Below are positions 5,906 to 14,162 of a stretch of DNA of 64,000 nucleotides, piece by piece. The notes under the pieces are model-generated. The model had not been told where the DNA came from. It saw nothing but the letters and a program-made list of their open reading frames with translations, and did no database searches. Numbering within the stretch: position 1 is the first letter of the stretch; each line of letters starts with the position of its first letter. This stretch comes from Patescibacteria group bacterium (GTDB taxonomy: Bacteria; Patescibacteriota; Gracilibacteria; UBA4473): the NCBI GenBank assembly GCA_965660445.1, contig CBFIAK010000001.1, forward strand, positions 1 through 64,000, written 5' to 3'. A program made the translations under genes and the position numbers.

Positions 5906-8113
5906 ATGAATAGAATACAACGCCTTTTCTTCCGATACGGAGCGCTAAGTATCGCTTTATGCGTGGTATCTTTATCAACAGCATTCGCATCTCCTTTTTT
6001 AGCGGTAAACAACGCACGAGCCGGACAAGATGTTCCTTTTCGAGCATCAAACCTACACAGCAACGAAATAGTAGACATCCTTTTAACACGACCACAAAAC
6101 GCTCCTATTGCATTTCAAGCACAAGCAGATATTGATGGCATCCTTACTCATACTATTCATTCTCTGCATACCAAAAAAAGTGGTGAATACACACTCACAA
6201 TCCAAAGATCGATTGCTCCTCAAGTACAAAAAACAATAACTGTATTTCCGGGAACAGTTTCTTCTTATACTTCACAAATACAACTTTCTCATCATACAGC
6301 CTCTGCAAATAATCAAGAATCTATTGATGTAGAAATTCAACTACGTGATGCATTTGAAAATCCTATTCCTCAAGAAAGTGTTCGTATAATTTCTTCTCGA
6401 AACGAAGACCGAATAACACTTCACACCCCTCGAACAGACCATAATGGAAAGATAAGCGCGTCTATTCAATCCGAAAAAGCAGGAAGTTCTACATTATCTG
6501 TACTCGCACAAGGAAATGTGCTTTTTCAGAAACCAAACATCGTTTTTTATGTAAACACCCCTAACACACTTTCTTTTAGTGGAAGTTCTGGAAACCCTCG
6601 ATACGCTGATTTCTTACGAGCACAAATTTTTGGAGACTCAGAAATATCGCAAGCGAGCTATCTTACTATTGAATCCATTCCTGCTGAAGCACAGCTCAAT
6701 GAAACGATTACCTTTACGGTTACAGCGAGAGACATAAACGGAGAAATTGTTCCAACCTATCAAGGGACCGTTCGATTTAATACTCCAAACGATTCACGAT
6801 CGGTGCTTCCCTCACAATATACATTCACAAAAGATGACCAAGGGCAACATACATTTTTTCTCGCGGCATCATTTGGAACCACTGGACAACAAACATTTGA
6901 AGTACATGATCTCGACGATTTTCGTATTGCAGGAGAGGCAAACCTAAACATCACACGAGGATCAAGTATTCCTGAACGTCCTTCAAACCCAGCTCTACAA
7001 ATAACAGCACCACTCCCAGGGAAATACCAAACAAATCGAGTAACGATAACAGGAACTGCTCAAGATGTAGAATCAGTTCGTATTGTTGACGGTATGTATG
7101 AACTCGTCACAAATCTTGAAGTAGATGATAATGGAAATTTTGTGTTCCAAACACCACGACTCGGTGATGGAGTTCATATTTTCCAAGTATTTGATATGTA
7201 TTCTGATCTAAGCTCTGAAACAGTAGAAATCGAGATTGATTCATCACCACCAAACACTATAACAGTGAGTACTGAACCAGAACTCCCCTTCTCTCCAGGA
7301 CAAGAATTCCAAGTCATTGTCTCTTCTAATGAATCACTCGCATCGGCAAGTGCTATTTATCAAGACGTACTCACCCAACTTATACCCTCTAATACCGATT
7401 ACGTACGAACTCTTACCGCCCCTCTCACTCCAGGAGAATACCCTGTGCACGTACTCGCATCAGATATGCTCGGGAATGAAATTCGAAAAGACAATGCTCT
7501 TGTTATTATCATTCAAGCAGAAGAAGAAAAAAATGAACCAGAAGACCTTCAGCCAACTGCTCCAAAAGAACCATTGGGGGGGGTAAGAAATGTACAAGCA
7601 CAAAGAGGAGATGGGCGCATCACATTACTTTGGTCACCACCTCAAAGCGGAGAAGCAACTCAATATAAAATCGAATTTGCTCAAACTCCTCTCTTTACGG
7701 AACCATCAACAGAAGAAGGTGATATTGGAATTTTTGACGAACTGTTTAGTAGCCCTTCTCAAAACCAAGATGATCCTTTTCTGCCATTGTTGGAAGATGA
7801 GGAATCTCAAATAAATGAGAAATCAATGCTTAATTTTGATCAATTCAATATTACACCTGACAACCGTGTACAATGGTATGTTGATAATCTCGAAGACAAT
7901 AAAAAATATTATTTTCGCGTACGAGCTATTGACAAAGACGGCATCGAAGGGCCTGCAAGCGATATTATAGAAGAAATTACAAACGGTGCGGCACAGTCGC
8001 TTATACCACAAGAAACGCCTGTCACTGGAAATGGAGGAACGGTCATTGCTCTTATAGTGGGAATTATTCTTTTTGGAGGTCTTTTGCTTTATCGGCGACG
8101 ATCACAAATTTAA
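5906..8113 (+). CDS. Secreted surface protein with invasin/Ig-like and FN3 domains and a C-terminal LPxTG-like sorting signal
   Basis: Signal peptide; Big_1-like LRDAFENPI...TDHNG; FN3 (ITLLWSPP...YYFRVRA); C-terminus TPVTG + TM + RRR. Confidence 0.8.
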   Translation: MNRIQRLFFRYGALSIALCVVSLSTAFASPFLAVNNARAGQDVPFRASNLHSNEIVDILLTRPQNAPIAFQAQADIDGILTHTIHSLHTKKSGEYTLTIQRSIAPQVQKTITVFPGTVSSYTSQIQLSHHTASANNQESIDVEIQLRDAFENPIPQESVRIISSRNEDRITLHTPRTDHNGKISASIQSEKAGSSTLSVLAQGNVLFQKPNIVFYVNTPNTLSFSGSSGNPRYADFLRAQIFGDSEISQASYLTIESIPAEAQLNETITFTVTARDINGEIVPTYQGTVRFNTPNDSRSVLPSQYTFTKDDQGQHTFFLAASFGTTGQQTFEVHDLDDFRIAGEANLNITRGSSIPERPSNPALQITAPLPGKYQTNRVTITGTAQDVESVRIVDGMYELVTNLEVDDNGNFVFQTPRLGDGVHIFQVFDMYSDLSSETVEIEIDSSPPNTITVSTEPELPFSPGQEFQVIVSSNESLASASAIYQDVLTQLIPSNTDYVRTLTAPLTPGEYPVHVLASDMLGNEIRKDNALVIIIQAEEEKNEPEDLQPTAPKEPLGGVRNVQAQRGDGRITLLWSPPQSGEATQYKIEFAQTPLFTEPSTEEGDIGIFDELFSSPSQNQDDPFLPLLEDEESQINEKSMLNFDQFNITPDNRVQWYVDNLEDNKKYYFRVRAIDKDGIEGPASDIIEEITNGAAQSLIPQETPVTGNGGTVIALIVGIILFGGLLLYRRRSQI

Positions 8114-8155
8114 AAGAATCAATATTGCACCAAAACGACAACAGGAGTATACTCT

Positions 8156-10480
8156 ATGCATATGTTTGGCAAAAAAAAGACAGCTCCAAAAATAAAGATT
8201 CCTTCTTCTGTCCTTAAAAAGGAGGCTCATAAAATTGCCAAAAAAATGATGGATCAGGAGACACAGAAAGAAAAAAAACGAATCTTACGAGAAAAAGCAC
8301 AAGCAAAAGCAAAACTCAAACTACAAAAACACAGAGAAAATCAAGAGAATTGGGAACCCTTGATAGACGATCACTTAAAAAGAGAAATATGGGGGGGAGG
8401 ATGGATTTTTTTCGGTATACTTCTTGGAGGTCTTCTCTTTTGGCACGAAACAAACTTTACCGCTTTTCTTGCAACCAAGATAATGGATATTTTTGGAGTT
8501 GGTGCATACACACTTCCAATTATTGCTATCAGTATAGGTACCTATTTAATCAAAGAAGAAGAATCATTTTTTCCACCGATTCGTGTTTTTTGTCTCGCTC
8601 TTGTTTTTACTTCCCTCTTAGGATTCGTACATTTATTTGTAGAAGCTGAAGAATCACTTTCAAGAGCCGATCAGTTTGGAGGGGCTATTGGATTTGCACT
8701 GAGTATTTTTCCTCGTCAGTTTCTTGGTGATTTCCTTGCTGGACTGCTCATGATTGGGTTGTTTTGGATATGTGCCATGATTGGATTTTCTCTTCGACTC
8801 TCTGATATACGACAATTCTTTTCTTCAAAAGACCAACCTGAAGAAACAGAAACCTCAAATAATAGACAAAAAACAAAAAAACGAGCAAATGAGATTGAAC
8901 CAGAAAAAGAATCTCTTTCTGACAAAGAACGGTTTCAAAACGAAGTCGAAATAATCGATTCAACAAAAAAAATAAAAGCCGAAGCGAATCAAACAATTCA
9001 ACTCGATAGCGAAGACGACGAATTCACACAAGCAAAAAACCGAGACTTATCTGGTGTTTGGGTTCCACCAAGTCTCGATTTACTCAAAGATGATATTGCG
9101 ACTATTCATGTAGATGAAAACGCTATTCGAAAAAAAGCGGAGATTATCCGAGAGAAACTTGAACAGTTTGGTATCTTGGTTGATATGAAATCAGTACACG
9201 TAGGACCAACCGTAACGCAATTTACCCTTGAGCCTTCTGCGGGAATCAAACTCACAAAAATAACAGCTCTTAAAAACGACTTAGCACTCGCACTAGCGGC
9301 AAAAAACCTTCGTATTGAAGCCCCTATTCCGGGAAAATCCTTAGTGGGTATAGAAATTCCAAATGAAGACAGAGCTATTGTGGGAATGCGAGAACTTCTT
9401 GAATCAGAAACGTGGCAAGAAAGCGACGAGCCTTTAACATTATGTCTGGGAAGAGATGTATCAGGAAAACCGTCTCTTATGGATTTAGCAAAAATGCCAC
9501 ACCTTCTTATTGCGGGAAAAACAGGATCGGGGAAATCGGTGGCGATGAATGCTTTCTTGTCATCTCTTTTATGGAGAAATGCTCCTGATAAACTCAAGCT
9601 TATTCTCATCGACCCAAAAAGAGTAGAACTGAGCATGTATAACAAACTTCCTCATTTACTCACCCCTGTAATCACAGAACCAGAGAAAGCGGTATCAGCG
9701 CTTGCATGGGCTGTGGCTGAAATGAACAAACGATACCGTATGTTTGAAAAAGCTCGATGCCGAAATATTGCCGAATACAATGAAAAGTTCCCTGAAAACC
9801 CAGAACCTCTTATTGTTATTGTGATTGACGAACTTGCAGACCTTATGATGGTTGCTGGAAAAGATGTTGAGGCAGCAATTTGCCGAATAGCGCAACTGGC
9901 GCGAGCTATTGGAATGCATCTCATCGTTGCCACACAAAGACCTTCTGTTGACGTCGTTACTGGACTTATTAAAGCAAACTTACCAGCACGAATTGCATTT
10001 AAAGTATCATCAGGAATCGATTCTCGAACAATACTAGATGCTGTTGGAGCTGAAGATCTCTTAGGGTTTGGGGATATGTTATCACTCGACGGAAATAGTG
10101 GTATTGTAACACGAATACAAGGTCTTTTTATCTCCAATCAAGAAGTCGAACGACTTACAAACCATATAAAACTCCAGTTTCCAGAAATGATTTCCAATGA
10201 TGCTATTACCAACCAATCAATCGAAGGTATGGCAAAAGGAGGCGTCCTTACCGCTGGAATAGAAACAAAAGAAATAAAAGATGAAGATCTTGATGAATTG
10301 TTTCAAGAAGCCGTAGAGGTTGTACTCGATAACAAGAAAGCATCAGCAAGTTTTTTACAAAGACGGCTTGAAATCGGGTATGCTCGTGCAGCACGAATAC
10401 TCGATCAAATGGAAAGCAAAGGGATTATAGGACCCTCAAAAGGAGCAAAAGCTCGTGAGATATTTGGAATCCAAGAATAA
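8156..10480 (+). CDS. ftsK: DNA translocase FtsK/SpoIIIE
   Basis: N-terminal TMs, PHLLIAGKTGSGKS, IDELADLM, ATQRPSVDV, gamma domain LQRRLEIGYARAAR. Confidence 0.97.
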   Translation: MHMFGKKKTAPKIKIPSSVLKKEAHKIAKKMMDQETQKEKKRILREKAQAKAKLKLQKHRENQENWEPLIDDHLKREIWGGGWIFFGILLGGLLFWHETNFTAFLATKIMDIFGVGAYTLPIIAISIGTYLIKEEESFFPPIRVFCLALVFTSLLGFVHLFVEAEESLSRADQFGGAIGFALSIFPRQFLGDFLAGLLMIGLFWICAMIGFSLRLSDIRQFFSSKDQPEETETSNNRQKTKKRANEIEPEKESLSDKERFQNEVEIIDSTKKIKAEANQTIQLDSEDDEFTQAKNRDLSGVWVPPSLDLLKDDIATIHVDENAIRKKAEIIREKLEQFGILVDMKSVHVGPTVTQFTLEPSAGIKLTKITALKNDLALALAAKNLRIEAPIPGKSLVGIEIPNEDRAIVGMRELLESETWQESDEPLTLCLGRDVSGKPSLMDLAKMPHLLIAGKTGSGKSVAMNAFLSSLLWRNAPDKLKLILIDPKRVELSMYNKLPHLLTPVITEPEKAVSALAWAVAEMNKRYRMFEKARCRNIAEYNEKFPENPEPLIVIVIDELADLMMVAGKDVEAAICRIAQLARAIGMHLIVATQRPSVDVVTGLIKANLPARIAFKVSSGIDSRTILDAVGAEDLLGFGDMLSLDGNSGIVTRIQGLFISNQEVERLTNHIKLQFPEMISNDAITNQSIEGMAKGGVLTAGIETKEIKDEDLDELFQEAVEVVLDNKKASASFLQRRLEIGYARAARILDQMESKGIIGPSKGAKAREIFGIQE

Positions 10481-10482
10481 AT

Positions 10483-10510
10483 TTGACGTTTCAGTTCAAA
10501 AATCGATAAT
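10483..10510 (+). promoter_or_regulatory. Sigma70-type promoter for the leader/attenuator
   Basis: TTGACG (10483-88), 16-nt spacer, GATAAT (10505-10); ATG of the leader peptide 8 nt downstream. Confidence 0.55.
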
Positions 10511-10518
10511 AAAAACAG

Positions 10519-10581
10519 ATGAAGATGTTTCTTTTTTCAAACGCATTTTTCTTTTTCTTTCCACAGAAAGAAGCGTTTTAG
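10519..10581 (+). CDS. Phe-rich leader peptide MKMFLFSNAFFFFFPQKEAF (20 aa)
   Basis: Translated by hand: 8 Phe codons, 5 of them consecutive; the stop codon lies within attenuator segment 2. Confidence 0.55.
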   Translation: MKMFLFSNAFFFFFPQKEAF

Positions 10582-10634
10582 AAATTTATTTCTTCATTCA
10601 TTCTCAAACGCTTCACAAAAAAGCGTTTTTTTTT
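10539..10634 (+). promoter_or_regulatory. Transcription attenuator with alternative antiterminator and terminator hairpins
   Basis: Segment 2 GAAGCGTTTtAGAA (10570-83) pairs with segment 3 TTCTcAAACGCTTC (10601-14). Alternatively AAACGCTT (10606-13) pairs with AAGCGTTT (10621-28) and is followed by a T run. Segment 1 AAACGC (10539-44) can pair with segment 2. Confidence 0.65.
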
Positions 10635-10655
10635 ATTTTTTATTTTTTTATTTCT

Positions 10656-10820
10656 ATGGAAAAAAATACACCAATTTCTGTTTCTGATTCCGAAAAAATA
10701 ACTGATACTCAAGAAAAAAGTATCGAACAAAAAAATACGCAAACACCAGTACAAAAAGTAGTAGACAGTATCCAATATGATGTTATCGAAGCAGCTCTTA
10801 AAGGAGATTCTCCGTGGTAG
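10656..10820 (+). CDS. Small orphan protein (54 aa)
   Basis: MEKNTPISVS...EAALKGDSPW; ATG just downstream of the attenuator; 3' end overlaps the dnaG 3' end by 23 nt. Confidence 0.55.
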   Translation: MEKNTPISVSDSEKITDTQEKSIEQKNTQTPVQKVVDSIQYDVIEAALKGDSPW

Positions 10821-12498
10821 AAGCTGGGGTTATAGTTTGATTTTGCAAAGCATAAAACTGTTTTAATTGATCATTCGTCTCTTGTTTTCGTTGTTTGGGT
10901 TGTTTTAATCGCTCAATAAATGCTCCAAAGTCTTGTTTCAGTCGTTCAGAAGAAACATCATGCGCATATAACAATTCTTGTGATAATTGAAACGCATGAA
11001 GACGGTGTTCTTCTTGAGGTTGAAGTGAATCTCCTTGACGTATTTTTTGAAAAAGCAGGGCTTCTGACTCATCAAAGAGTTCTTGTATTTTTTCGTTCAC
11101 ACGTGAACCAAAAAAATCCCAATGTGCCATTAAAAATCCAAGAAATGCTTGCGAAAGTGTAAAGACTGTTTTTTTTATTTCTGGTTCTTTTCTCGATACT
11201 TTAACCGTTGAATTTTTCATGAGAAACCGCTGAAACTCTTGTTCGATCAATAAACGCGGTTTTTTCATTTTTTGTGCAACACTCTCTATCATTTCATCAA
11301 GCACAAGTGGGCGACGAATAAGTGCCATATATTCAAAAAAGGAATCCAAGAATAATTGTTTTCCTTCCATTGATCCGTTTAAATACTTATGAGCAAACCG
11401 ATCAAGTAAAAAAGACAGTGCCACAGGCGCGTTCTTTAAAAGAGAATGAATACTTTCTGGATTCGTTTGAACTAGATCATCTAAATCTTTTACTCCTTGT
11501 ATATCAATAATAAAAGGATAAATATCTATCTGCAAACACATTTCAAGCGCTCGAAGCGTTGCTTTCTTTCCAGCAATATCAGAATCAAAAGCCAGATAAA
11601 CATTTTGAGTCATTCGTTTTGTAATACGCAAATGATCATCAGTAAGCGATGTTCCACACGTTGCAACCGCATACGCTATTCCTGCTTTATGCACCGAAAT
11701 AACATCGAAATTACCTTCCACAAAAACAATTTTATCTTGTTCTCGAATAGCTGATCGAGCTTGATACAATCCAAAAAGAGTTGATGACTTCTTATACACT
11801 GGATTTTCAGGAGAATTGATATATTTTGCTGGTGATTTTCCTCCTATATCTCTTCCTGTAAACGCTATAATATCACCATTACGAGGCTCATGAACAGGAA
11901 TAATAATGCGATTCAAAAACCTATCTTTCATCGTTTGGTTCCCAAAATCACGCTCAAAAGCAACGCCTGATTGAGCAATAAGATCAGCAGAGAAACCTTC
12001 GTTCAGTAGAAACTGAGTTAATCCGTTTTCTTTTTCTCCCCCGTACCCCAACCCCCACTGTTCAATAAGATCATCTGTTATACCTCGTTTAGAAAGATAC
12101 AATTGTGCAGATTCTGTTTTCGATAATTGTGCCTGAAAATACTCGTTTGCTTTCTTATGCAAAGCAAAAATATCTTTCTTTTGTTCTCGATTCGATGCGG
12201 TATGCGTCATCTCTTTTGGCATTTCCATTCCAGCCATATCAGCAAGCATTTCAACCGATTCCAAAAAAGATATGTTTTCAATACGTTCTAAAAAAGAAAT
12301 AACATCTCCTCCTTCCGAAGTTCCAAAATCATACCAAAACTGCTTATCTGGTGACACACAAAAACTCGGTGTTCGTTCTTTTCGAAACGGTGAACAACAC
12401 ATATAATTTTTTCCTGTTTTTTTGAGTTCTGCATACCGACGAACTATATCCACAATATCAATACGCGATTTTACGTCTTCTACAAACCGATCGTTCAT
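10798..12498 (-). CDS. dnaG: DNA primase
   Basis: N-terminal zinc-finger region (SPFRKERTPSF), KYINSPE, TOPRIM VEGNFDV and FDSDIAG. Confidence 0.96.
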   Translation of the reverse strand: MNDRFVEDVKSRIDIVDIVRRYAELKKTGKNYMCCSPFRKERTPSFCVSPDKQFWYDFGTSEGGDVISFLERIENISFLESVEMLADMAGMEMPKEMTHTASNREQKKDIFALHKKANEYFQAQLSKTESAQLYLSKRGITDDLIEQWGLGYGGEKENGLTQFLLNEGFSADLIAQSGVAFERDFGNQTMKDRFLNRIIIPVHEPRNGDIIAFTGRDIGGKSPAKYINSPENPVYKKSSTLFGLYQARSAIREQDKIVFVEGNFDVISVHKAGIAYAVATCGTSLTDDHLRITKRMTQNVYLAFDSDIAGKKATLRALEMCLQIDIYPFIIDIQGVKDLDDLVQTNPESIHSLLKNAPVALSFLLDRFAHKYLNGSMEGKQLFLDSFFEYMALIRRPLVLDEMIESVAQKMKKPRLLIEQEFQRFLMKNSTVKVSRKEPEIKKTVFTLSQAFLGFLMAHWDFFGSRVNEKIQELFDESEALLFQKIRQGDSLQPQEEHRLHAFQLSQELLYAHDVSSERLKQDFGAFIERLKQPKQRKQETNDQLKQFYALQNQTITPASTTENLL

Positions 12499-12559
12499 AT
12501 TTCATATATACGAAAAATACAAAAAAATACAAGCACCCACCCGACAAAAGAAGGACCAA

Positions 12560-13285
12560 TTATGACGAAAAAACGATACGAGTCCCAATATCTTCTCCTT
12601 GTATAAATCGAAGTAAATTTCCTTCTTGCATTAATTGAAACACTGAAATTGGCATATGATTATCTCGACATTGTGCAATAGCAGTTGAATCCATGATTTT
12701 TAAGTTTTTCTCTAAAACTTCGTCAAACGTAACGGTTGTGTATCGAACCGCATCGGCATTTTTCCGAGGATCTTTATCATAGACGCCATCAACATTTGTT
12801 GCCTTGAGAAGAACATCACATTTCAACTCTAAAGCTCTTAACGCTGCTGCTGAATCGGTGGTAAAATAAGGATTTCCTGTTCCTGCTGCACAAATCACAA
12901 TACGAGATTTCTCTAAATGGCGAATAACTCGACGCATAATATAAGGCTCAGCCACTTCAGGAATATCAATGGCACTGCACACTCGACAATGCAGTCCTTT
13001 TTTTTCAAGCGTTGCTTGTAATGCAATGGCATTCATAATAGTTCCCAACATTCCCATGTAATCAGACGGTACACGGTCAATATCTGAATGACTATTGCGA
13101 GCACCTCTCCATATATTGCCCGCTCCAATAACCACAACAATTTCAACGCCTAACGCATGAATTAATTGAATTTCTTGTGTAATAAAACGAAGAATATCAT
13201 GCTCAATCCCAAATTCCTTATCTCCCAGCAGAGCTTCTCCAGAAAGTTTCAAGAGAATTCGACGATATTTTGATTTTTTTTTCAT
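12560..13285 (-). CDS. pyrH: UMP kinase
   Basis: LLKLSGEAL, GNIWRG, DYMGMLGT, GNPYFTTD, DGVYDKDP. Confidence 0.97.
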   Translation of the reverse strand: MKKKSKYRRILLKLSGEALLGDKEFGIEHDILRFITQEIQLIHALGVEIVVVIGAGNIWRGARNSHSDIDRVPSDYMGMLGTIMNAIALQATLEKKGLHCRVCSAIDIPEVAEPYIMRRVIRHLEKSRIVICAAGTGNPYFTTDSAAALRALELKCDVLLKATNVDGVYDKDPRKNADAVRYTTVTFDEVLEKNLKIMDSTAIAQCRDNHMPISVFQLMQEGNLLRFIQGEDIGTRIVFSS

Positions 13286-13319
13286 TTCGTCTTACAGTAT
13301 AACAAAGAATAAAAAAGAA

Positions 13320-14162
13320 ATGAAAGTTATTTTGCTCACCACCCATAATCATATCGCTGCATGTGTATCAGTACACACAATGCTCAAAAACACCCTTTTA
13401 AAAAAACATAATATTGAGGTGGTTGGTATTGTTTCAAGTGAACCATATGAAAATAAGCAAAAACAAATAGCAAAACTCAAACAAATTATTCGCAAATCAG
13501 GTCTTTCTTTTGGTTTAAAACTTATAATCGTTGGGTTTATACAACTCGTATCTTTGAAAATAGCACGATTGGTGAAAGGAGAAAAAAATAGAACCTATTT
13601 TGAAATCGATGAGATTGCAAATAAGCATGGTATTGCATATCTTCGTACACAAAATATCAATAGTGATGAAGTAAAAACATTTATTGAAAACCACAAATCT
13701 GATTATTTAGTTTCTTGTGGGCTATTACAACTGGTTAAAAAACATATTCTGGATCTTCCTATAGAAGGGTCTATAAACTTTCATCCTTCGCTGATTCAAG
13801 AACACCGAGGAACCTTTAGTAGCTTTTGGGCTCTCTTTCGTCGAACAACTACGAGTGGGGCGACGGTCCACTTTATGACAGAAAAATTCGATGATGGAGA
13901 TGTAATTGTGCAAAAAAAATTCTTTGTACACCCCTCAGATACACTCTATTCTGTAGATGAGAAAAGTGCTAAAATTGGAGGAAACTTAATCGTGAAAGCA
14001 CTGGTAAAACTCAAACGAAAAAAAACGAAAAAAATATTTATTCATTCACTGGCAAAAATGCTGAGTGTTCCATCTCGAGAAGATATAGAAATAGTTCAAA
14101 AACACAGATCTCATATCTTTTCAATTCAAGATATTATGAGAATTCTCGGATTCAAGAAATAA
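13320..14162 (+). CDS. Formyltransferase family protein (Fmt-like N-terminal domain; substrate unknown)
   Basis: INFHPSLIQEHRG, GATVH, FDDGDVI motifs; lacks the Fmt C-terminal domain. Confidence 0.8.
   Translation: MKVILLTTHNHIAACVSVHTMLKNTLLKKHNIEVVGIVSSEPYENKQKQIAKLKQIIRKSGLSFGLKLIIVGFIQLVSLKIARLVKGEKNRTYFEIDEIANKHGIAYLRTQNINSDEVKTFIENHKSDYLVSCGLLQLVKKHILDLPIEGSINFHPSLIQEHRGTFSSFWALFRRTTTSGATVHFMTEKFDDGDVIVQKKFFVHPSDTLYSVDEKSAKIGGNLIVKALVKLKRKKTKKIFIHSLAKMLSVPSREDIEIVQKHRSHIFSIQDIMRILGFKK

Follow-up and report, generated by a model that had tools for sequence, protein, structure and literature searches.

A candidate phenylalanine-codon leader-peptide attenuator between the convergent ftsK and dnaG genes of a Peribacteria-type bacterium

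The window analysed here comprises 64,000 nucleotides (nt) of DNA, positions 1 to 64,000 of contig CBFIAK010000001.1 (assembly GCA_965660445.1), from a tiny marine Peribacteria-type bacterium belonging to the candidate phyla radiation (CPR). In the window the genes ftsK (plus strand) and dnaG (minus strand) are convergent, and between them lie all the features of a candidate regulatory switch. We tentatively interpret the 175-nt spacer that separates ftsK from a downstream open reading frame (ORF) of 54 amino acids (aa) as a ribosome-mediated leader-peptide attenuator of transcription with a second role as the terminator of ftsK, a reading to which we give a probability of roughly 0.45. What was computed directly comprises the sequence elements with their folding energies and statistical rarity, the place at which the fold switches, and the coding-like character of the 54-aa ORF. 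The host genome that served as reference is 0.99 Mb in five contigs, with 36-37% G+C and a completeness of 100% by marker genes. One DNA run, labelled marine plankton metagenome and possibly the source, is listed as containing this DNA, and no RNA run is.

The spacer contains a promoter-like site, the short leader ORF MKMFLFSNAFFFFFPQKEAF, four RNA segments numbered 1 to 4 and a terminator (Table 1). A preliminary description of this DNA, made from the sequence alone, had named the promoter TTGACG-16-GATAAT, the 20-codon Phe leader, the 1:2 and 3:4 pairings, the U tract and the 54-aa ORF, and all of these were recovered at the same positions. Five of the Phe codons in the leader are consecutive (10546-10560). 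Clustered codons for one amino acid in a short upstream ORF are expected of an attenuator, and here eight of 20 codons specify Phe.

Three helices compete for the four segments. The core of 1:2 pairs AAACGC (10539-10544) with GCGTTT (10573-10578) and extends to 18 pairs. In the 2:3 helix, the putative antiterminator, 10570-10582 pairs with 10602-10614; the preliminary description credited it with 13 base pairs (bp), and the helix is indeed present, with 12 pairs over the 13 positions and one U.C mismatch. The 3:4 stem includes three G-C pairs and, as a hairpin with a U tract downstream of a gene, has the make-up of an intrinsic terminator. Local fold energies are -10.3 kcal/mol for 1:2, -13.4 kcal/mol for 2:3 and -7.1 kcal/mol for 3:4, and the 2:3 duplex reaches -14.9 kcal/mol. 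The 1:2, 2:3 and 3:4 helices are mutually exclusive, as those of an attenuator have to be. With no ribosome on the RNA, the minimum-energy fold of 10517-10660 combines 1:2 with the terminator. The plus strand of this region folds with a minimum free energy of -28.5 kcal/mol (z -4.5), a value matched by none of 200 shuffles; the minus strand folds less exceptionally (z -2.6).

We then considered the position of a translating ribosome by folding only the RNA 3' of it, with the end of the footprint set 12 or 15 nt past the first base of the A site. With the A site at F4 to F13 the RNA formed the antiterminator, with 11-12 pairs and no terminator; at F14 the outcome varied with the assumed footprint; and at Pro15, Lys17 or the stop codon the 8-bp terminator appeared. 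Thus, the switch point lies where the Phe run ends, which is what the classical model demands. The four-segment logic and ribosome geometry put forward in the preliminary description therefore hold in silico, where a ribosome stalled in the Phe run frees segment 2 and one at the stop codon masks it.

The rarity of this arrangement was assessed in a genome-wide scan for hairpins followed by a T tract. The scan gave 447 terminator-like calls, 231 of them in the 101 kb of intergenic DNA versus 216 in the 890 kb of coding DNA, and the intergenic calls merged to 182 distinct hairpins. The helix competing from upstream with the 3:4 terminator is the strongest among these 182 (-14.2 kcal/mol; next -11.6, median -5.4), and among the best 20 of the 231 calls this is the sole site where the competitor greatly outweighs the terminator. 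The terminator itself, at -6.5 kcal/mol in the scan, is in the weakest 4.4% of the 182 hairpins (median -12.2 kcal/mol) and lies 137 nt from the ftsK stop codon, whereas the median distance is 42 nt and 20% of the sites are at least 130 nt away. We also subjected the 91-nt leader to 20,000 dinucleotide shuffles that left the terminator unchanged, and counted any ORF of 8-40 codons that began with ATG and contained a run of at least four identical residues. A competitor of -12 kcal/mol or better arose in 132 shuffles (0.08% reached -14.2 or better) and a codon-run ORF in 124, while the two occurred together once. Under a random-sequence null the joint configuration is thus very improbable, at about 5e-5 per terminator without taking account of geometry, 1:2 helix or promoter.

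The gene that such a switch would control was evaluated with a dicodon model trained on 483 long ORFs of the host genome. Scored against an off-frame background, 10656-10817 has a log-odds of 0.99, a value above 77% of true in-frame windows that not one of 1490 off-frame windows or of 903 spurious ORFs attains. With an intergenic background the 54-aa ORF scores 0.82, which one of 203 intergenic small ORFs equals, and composition-preserving shuffles of it average -1.04; the top scorers among the 203 resemble ribosomal and other small conserved proteins by sequence. Judged by its codon statistics, the 54-aa ORF is probably a real gene. It encodes no Phe, a residue that makes up 5.6% of the proteome and is absent from 7.5% of 54-aa proteome windows; this absence is its one link to the amino acid that the leader would sense. 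Its own best promoter-like match is TTCACA-16-TATTTT (9/12, 10612-10639), inside the T-rich tract. A probably real, Phe-free and promoter-poor downstream gene counts for an attenuator over a duplicated hairpin.

The preliminary description had called this gene an orphan overlapping dnaG, which our searches bear out. The overlap is 23 nt. Queried with the ORF, or with the longer 121-aa public gene call that contains it, HMMER returned from 1.84 billion proteins only the query itself and one 1208-aa protein (E 7.6e-5), which matched the Phe-rich part. A word-based search among proteins of 29-95 aa gave no candidate relative of the 54-aa ORF, Pfam matches of the downstream ORF were all under the cut-off, and scores in the ESM Atlas did not exceed 0.87, with no relative recognised. 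A six-frame search of 42 family genomes produced two marginal matches, one an unrelated 112-aa membrane protein and the other within a 467-aa frame.

Table 1. Features of the candidate attenuator and of its surroundings (positions in the window).
Feature	Position	Strand	Remarks
Promoter-like site, TTGACG (10483-10488), 16 nt, GATAAT (10505-10510)	10483..10510	+	10/12 match
Leader ORF, 20 codons, 8 Phe	10519..10581	+	ATG 10519; stop 10579-10581
Long imperfect hairpin containing 1:2	10518-10598	+	RNA fold
Segment 1 (anti-antiterminator)	10533..10552	+	Over leader codons 6-12; pairs with 10565-10584 in minimum-energy fold
Segment 2	10565..10584	+	Pairs with segment 1, or via 10570-10582 with segment 3
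Segment 3	10602..10614	+	3' arm of antiterminator and 5' arm of terminator
Intrinsic terminator (3:4)	10606..10634	+	10606-10613/10621-10628, 8 pairs, 7-nt loop, nine T at 10626-10634
Orphan ORF, 54 aa	10656..10820	+	ATG 10656; gene-like dicodon usage; last 23 nt within dnaG
ftsK, 774 aa	8156..10480	+	ORF; C-terminal 250 aa 74-81% identical to 11 family relatives
dnaG, 566 aa	10798..12498	-	Convergent ORF; last 23 nt overlap the 54-aa ORF
Public gene call, 121 aa	10455..10820	+	GTG start, inside ftsK; singleton cluster, one contig

We infer the following mechanism, in which it is presumed that the promoter is used, that the leader is translated and that the switch responds to Phe, as is whatever role the small protein may have. 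Transcripts would begin at the promoter-like site (10483-10510) or come from ftsK, and would carry the 20-codon ORF with its eight Phe codons. When the leader is untranslated, or translated to its stop codon, segment 2 would be paired with segment 1 or hidden beneath the ribosome; the weak 3:4 hairpin with its U9 tract would then form and transcription would end near 10634. When charged tRNA-Phe is scarce, a ribosome would stall in the Phe run, melt 1:2 and leave segment 2 free, and the stronger 2:3 helix would pre-empt the terminator and let RNA polymerase enter the Phe-free 54-aa gene. With no later terminator, read-through would continue antisense into the 3' end of dnaG; after 10820 the plus strand has only weak terminator-like hairpins of 5-6 bp, at 11418, 11546 and 12194. 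Nothing indicates that such antisense transcripts would serve a function rather than being a side effect. Transcripts of ftsK must also end at the 3:4 hairpin, under every reading of the spacer.

This design recalls known amino-acid leaders. As outlined by Gurvich et al. (2011; PMC3082878), the pheL-pheA attenuator of gamma-proteobacteria has a Phe run in its leader ORF, whose translation controls transcription attenuation; the same account states that the enterobacterial pheL group ends UUC_CCC_UGA and that the roughly 15% of +1 frameshifting at the end of E. coli pheL is judged incidental. The leader described here likewise is a short ORF with an internal Phe run followed by a Pro codon (here UUU CCA). 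It differs from pheL-pheA in that it has no sequence or structure homology to it, continues for five codons past the Pro codon, belongs to a candidate transcript that is leaderless or nearly so, and precedes a 54-aa orphan rather than pheA in a host without a Phe pathway. The pheM-pheST, trp, his, leu and thr leaders of Enterobacteria also have four segments with exclusive 1:2, 2:3 and 3:4 helices, regulatory codons in or beside segment 1, a stop codon that lies at segment 2, and a U tract after the terminator; the genes under their control are biosynthetic or encode aminoacyl-tRNA synthetases, and different genera share these leaders. The spacer shares with them the four-segment design, the placement of codons and stop, and the terminator with its U tract. 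In the host genome pheS lies elsewhere (C1:684461); unlike these leaders, the spacer is not conserved in the relatives compared and stands before an orphan. Our literature searches found no paper describing leader-peptide attenuation in CPR bacteria (Patescibacteria).

Taken singly, the promoter-like site and the Phe-run mini-ORF are weak evidence. Two 10/12 promoter-like matches occur within 8000-13500, TTGACG-16-GATAAT being one. Across the genome, the density of sites with at least a 10/12 match is six times higher between genes than within coding DNA (1.83 vs 0.30 per kb), and about 0.3 of such quality are expected per 175 nt of intergenic DNA on both strands; within 8000-13500, 16 promoter-like sites were found where shuffles predict 14.4, which is no enrichment. 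Phe-rich mini-ORFs are common genome-wide: 31 of 11,258 small ATG ORFs have a run of at least four Phe and six a run of at least five, which vindicates the caveat in the preliminary description that T-rich DNA yields Phe codons by chance. The dicodon score of the leader ORF (-0.17 / -0.21) is not gene-like, as expected for a leader as well as for non-coding DNA.

In the host genome, Shine-Dalgarno-like words precede 15 of 230 well-defined starts, versus 14% of random 19-mers. An ATG stands exactly 6 nt after a TATAAT box at 21 of 184 sites, or at 12 of 60 with an extended -10 element, and this sharp class implies that leaderless mRNAs exist in the host. Sites of the class often read TGGTATAAT (examples at C1:452403-452450 and C2:95400-95470). 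Because the genome barely uses Shine-Dalgarno sites and has a leaderless class, the absent ribosome-binding site is no objection to the leader. An apparent peak of -10 boxes upstream of 'unambiguous' starts proved to be an artefact, as the required in-frame upstream stop codon imposes a 3-nt periodicity, and the count was redone without that filter.

The preliminary description had supposed a likely auxotrophic symbiont; this CPR bacterium is an auxotroph for Phe, with relatives named Peribacteria or Gracilibacteria. Neither prephenate dehydratase nor chorismate synthase was found in the host genome by searches that matched all 14 control genomes. Of 42 family genomes, 28 carry prephenate dehydratase, in most cases as part of a roughly 560-aa open frame resembling a tyrA-pheA fusion, so that loss of the pathway seems to have occurred inside the family, in the host lineage. 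The idea that the leader is a relic from an aromatic operon was examined in the DNA upstream of tyrA-pheA at 14 loci from relatives, those among 15 that have such a gene, and was rejected: three weak aromatic-rich mini-ORFs were seen there, none resembling the leader. These mini-ORFs, directly upstream of the fusion, are MIWKDYFFCVFSNFF, MSIFWLIFTYFICQ and MIFFFSALIGYFLKLY (L077 7122-7169, L083 3830-3874 and L084 2617-2667, respectively), and no convincing terminators were seen beside them.

Several results count against an attenuator. The -10 box and the leader ATG are 8 nt apart, a gap found at 5 of 184 sites, whereas the leaderless class peaks at 6 nt. A fold in which pairs may bridge the ribosome retains the terminator for stalls at F12 and F14; helices of this kind are, we infer, sterically unlikely. 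In a survey of some 250,000 windows of DNA we estimate, from the hairpin scan and the shuffles, that a few such constellations would be expected by chance. The host has no Phe pathway to regulate, and the putative target is an orphan without a family. A second attenuator was sought in the host genome as well. Among the other terminators 20 further rows were listed, with five sites that have a co-directional downstream gene; the four inspected (all but C1:162403) were C-termini of real genes, and neither a second convincing attenuator nor a stand-alone leader ORF emerged.

Comparative data count in the same direction. The preliminary description had looked to related genomes for the same leader and hairpins, and we found neither conservation nor synteny among 40-42 family genomes, with no genome from the genus of the host, and 18 metagenome loci. 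A DNA search of 40 relatives matched only short stretches of low complexity and the ftsK coding sequence (query 1-185). All 11 relatives inspected have other DNA behind ftsK, without dnaG; ftsK is near dnaG in none of 18 metagenome loci encoding DnaG relatives of 51-65% identity, and pyrH likewise is not nearby. A covariance model of the leader gave no convincing copy in 42 family genomes (best E 7.9e-4, 30 bits), and inspection showed the nine best loci to consist of coding DNA, ordinary terminators or intergenic hairpins of other kinds. The leader codons and helices are thus not conserved in the relatives compared, which is a weak test with no same-genus genome among them, and we attribute the lack of conservation mostly to the want of same-genus data. 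Rfam cmscan of 9500-12000 at E<=10 returned nine weak matches, all far below the gathering score, with no amino-acid leader or T-box among them; the leader does not belong to Phe_leader (RF01859) or to any other curated RNA family.

The realistic rival of the attenuator is not randomness but a duplicated terminator hairpin in T-rich DNA, and we regard this as distinctly possible. The spacer would then be an ordinary gene end, with 3:4 and its U9 tract as the ftsK terminator and the upstream hairpin as a diverged tandem copy or a stabilising structure of the 3' untranslated region; the Phe-rich ORF would be a by-product of the T-rich arm, and the 54-aa gene would be expressed by leaky read-through or from a weak T-tract promoter. 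A further point against the attenuator belongs here: words of 8-9 nt are common to segments 1 and 3 (TCAAACGC) and to segments 2 and 4 (AAGCGTTTT), so that a duplicated terminator could yield much of the alternative pairing, and duplication gives 1:2, 2:3 and 3:4 automatically. Yet four of the 12 pairs in 2:3 have no counterpart in 3:4 (G10570-C10614, and A/G/A at 10580-82 with U/C/U at 10602-04), and plain duplication of one hairpin would not give them. None of the others among the 182 distinct hairpins resembles a tandem self-copy.

The chance origin of the leader can be weighed in the same way. Phe-run mini-ORFs do arise by chance in a genome of 36% G+C, the run is found in just one of the three frames that the T-rich arm offers, and, given that arm, we estimate without computing it that a suitable ATG, open frame and stop codon would come about in 2-3% of cases. 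What a gene end leaves unexplained is the coincidence of the switch point with the end of the Phe run, and the joint occurrence of competitor and codon run in only one of 20,000 shuffles, with geometry and promoter uncounted. Intrinsic terminators are in general use in the host genome, and the hairpin with its T tract downstream of a same-strand gene looks like one of them; as a plain gene end, however, it is atypically weak and distant, and the upstream helix competing with it is by far the strongest. The 9/12 promoter-like site ahead of the 54-aa ORF, the lack of conservation and the failure to find another attenuator in the genome all fit an ordinary gene end.

The spacer might instead be a promoter-to-terminator unit for a structured RNA of about 118 nt (10517-10634), either a small RNA or a switch that responds to a protein or ligand in place of a ribosome, in which the mini-ORF is incidental or encodes a small hydrophobic peptide. 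The promoter-like site, the structured RNA and the terminator do form a self-contained unit, and the better folding of the plus over the minus strand agrees with it. Nevertheless, no Rfam family came near its gathering score and no copy was found in 42 relatives, and such a unit leaves the codon run and the ribosome-position switch unexplained. We consider it improbable.

The attenuator reading can also be extended. An obligate Phe auxotroph might retain an attenuator uncoupled from biosynthesis, with the charging of tRNA-Phe gauging the amino acid supplied by a host, and starvation might induce both the Phe-free 54-aa protein and antisense transcription into the 3' end of the primase gene, linking nutrition to replication. 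A nutrient checkpoint or antisense control of primase, as proposed in the preliminary description, found no support in our analysis and is pure conjecture; we hold the whole extension to be very unlikely.

One detail that the attenuator leaves unexplained is that a frame of 121 aa is open across the entire spacer (10455-10820). Were the public gene call for this frame right, the spacer would be coding DNA that contains the hairpins and specifies the hydrophobic N-terminus of a small membrane protein. This is the ORF that gene callers selected, and a Shine-Dalgarno-like AAGGAG stands 9 nt before its GTG. In contrast, 10482-10655 has a dicodon score of 0.10 / -0.27, under the 5th percentile (0.18) of real coding windows; Shine-Dalgarno sites are barely used in the genome, a canonical terminator with U9 sits inside the ORF, and the protein has no homologue. 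We find the call highly improbable in its full length. Because the dicodon statistics divide the frame into a coding-like part (10656-10817) and a part that is not, the call is probably over-extended upstream through the terminator, with its last 54 codons alone being coding-like. That a -1 slip of tRNA-Phe on UUU-UUC (10546-10551) moves leader ribosomes into the 10455-10820 frame, and through the terminator into the small gene, has only a very small chance of being true. Leaders with a Phe run can be prone to frameshifting, as the case of E. coli pheL illustrates.

The flanking genes offered some further observations. DnaG relatives mostly align only from residue 1 to between residues 531 and 552 of 566, which places the overlap with the 54-aa ORF in a poorly conserved dnaG tail (10798-10870 in the window); the closest DnaG fragments (64-65% identity in metagenomes; 77% over 95 aa in the genome collection) end before the 3' end of the gene. 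On the minus strand of 10481-10800, no canonical intrinsic terminator follows dnaG in the 300 nt after its stop codon, the sole candidate being the large hairpin as read on that strand, followed by GTTTTTATTATCGATTTTT. As a dnaG terminator this hairpin is possible but weak, as its T tract is partly paired into the stem, the stem base has only two G-C pairs and the minus-strand fold has a z of -2.6. Upstream of ftsK, the window encodes a 735-aa secreted protein (5906-8113) that ends in PVTGNGG, a hydrophobic stretch and RRRSQI, a C-terminus that from its sequence looks like a sortase-type cell-wall sorting signal.

If the attenuator is not real, the locus is a warning that a duplicated terminator hairpin in T-rich intergenic DNA can mimic the whole textbook design. 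If it is real, classical ribosome-sensed attenuation would operate in a reduced, Shine-Dalgarno-poor CPR bacterium, as a switch uncoupled from amino-acid synthesis that gates a lineage-specific microprotein. It would then provide a compact gauge of amino-acid supply for a dependent cell that is unable to make Phe.

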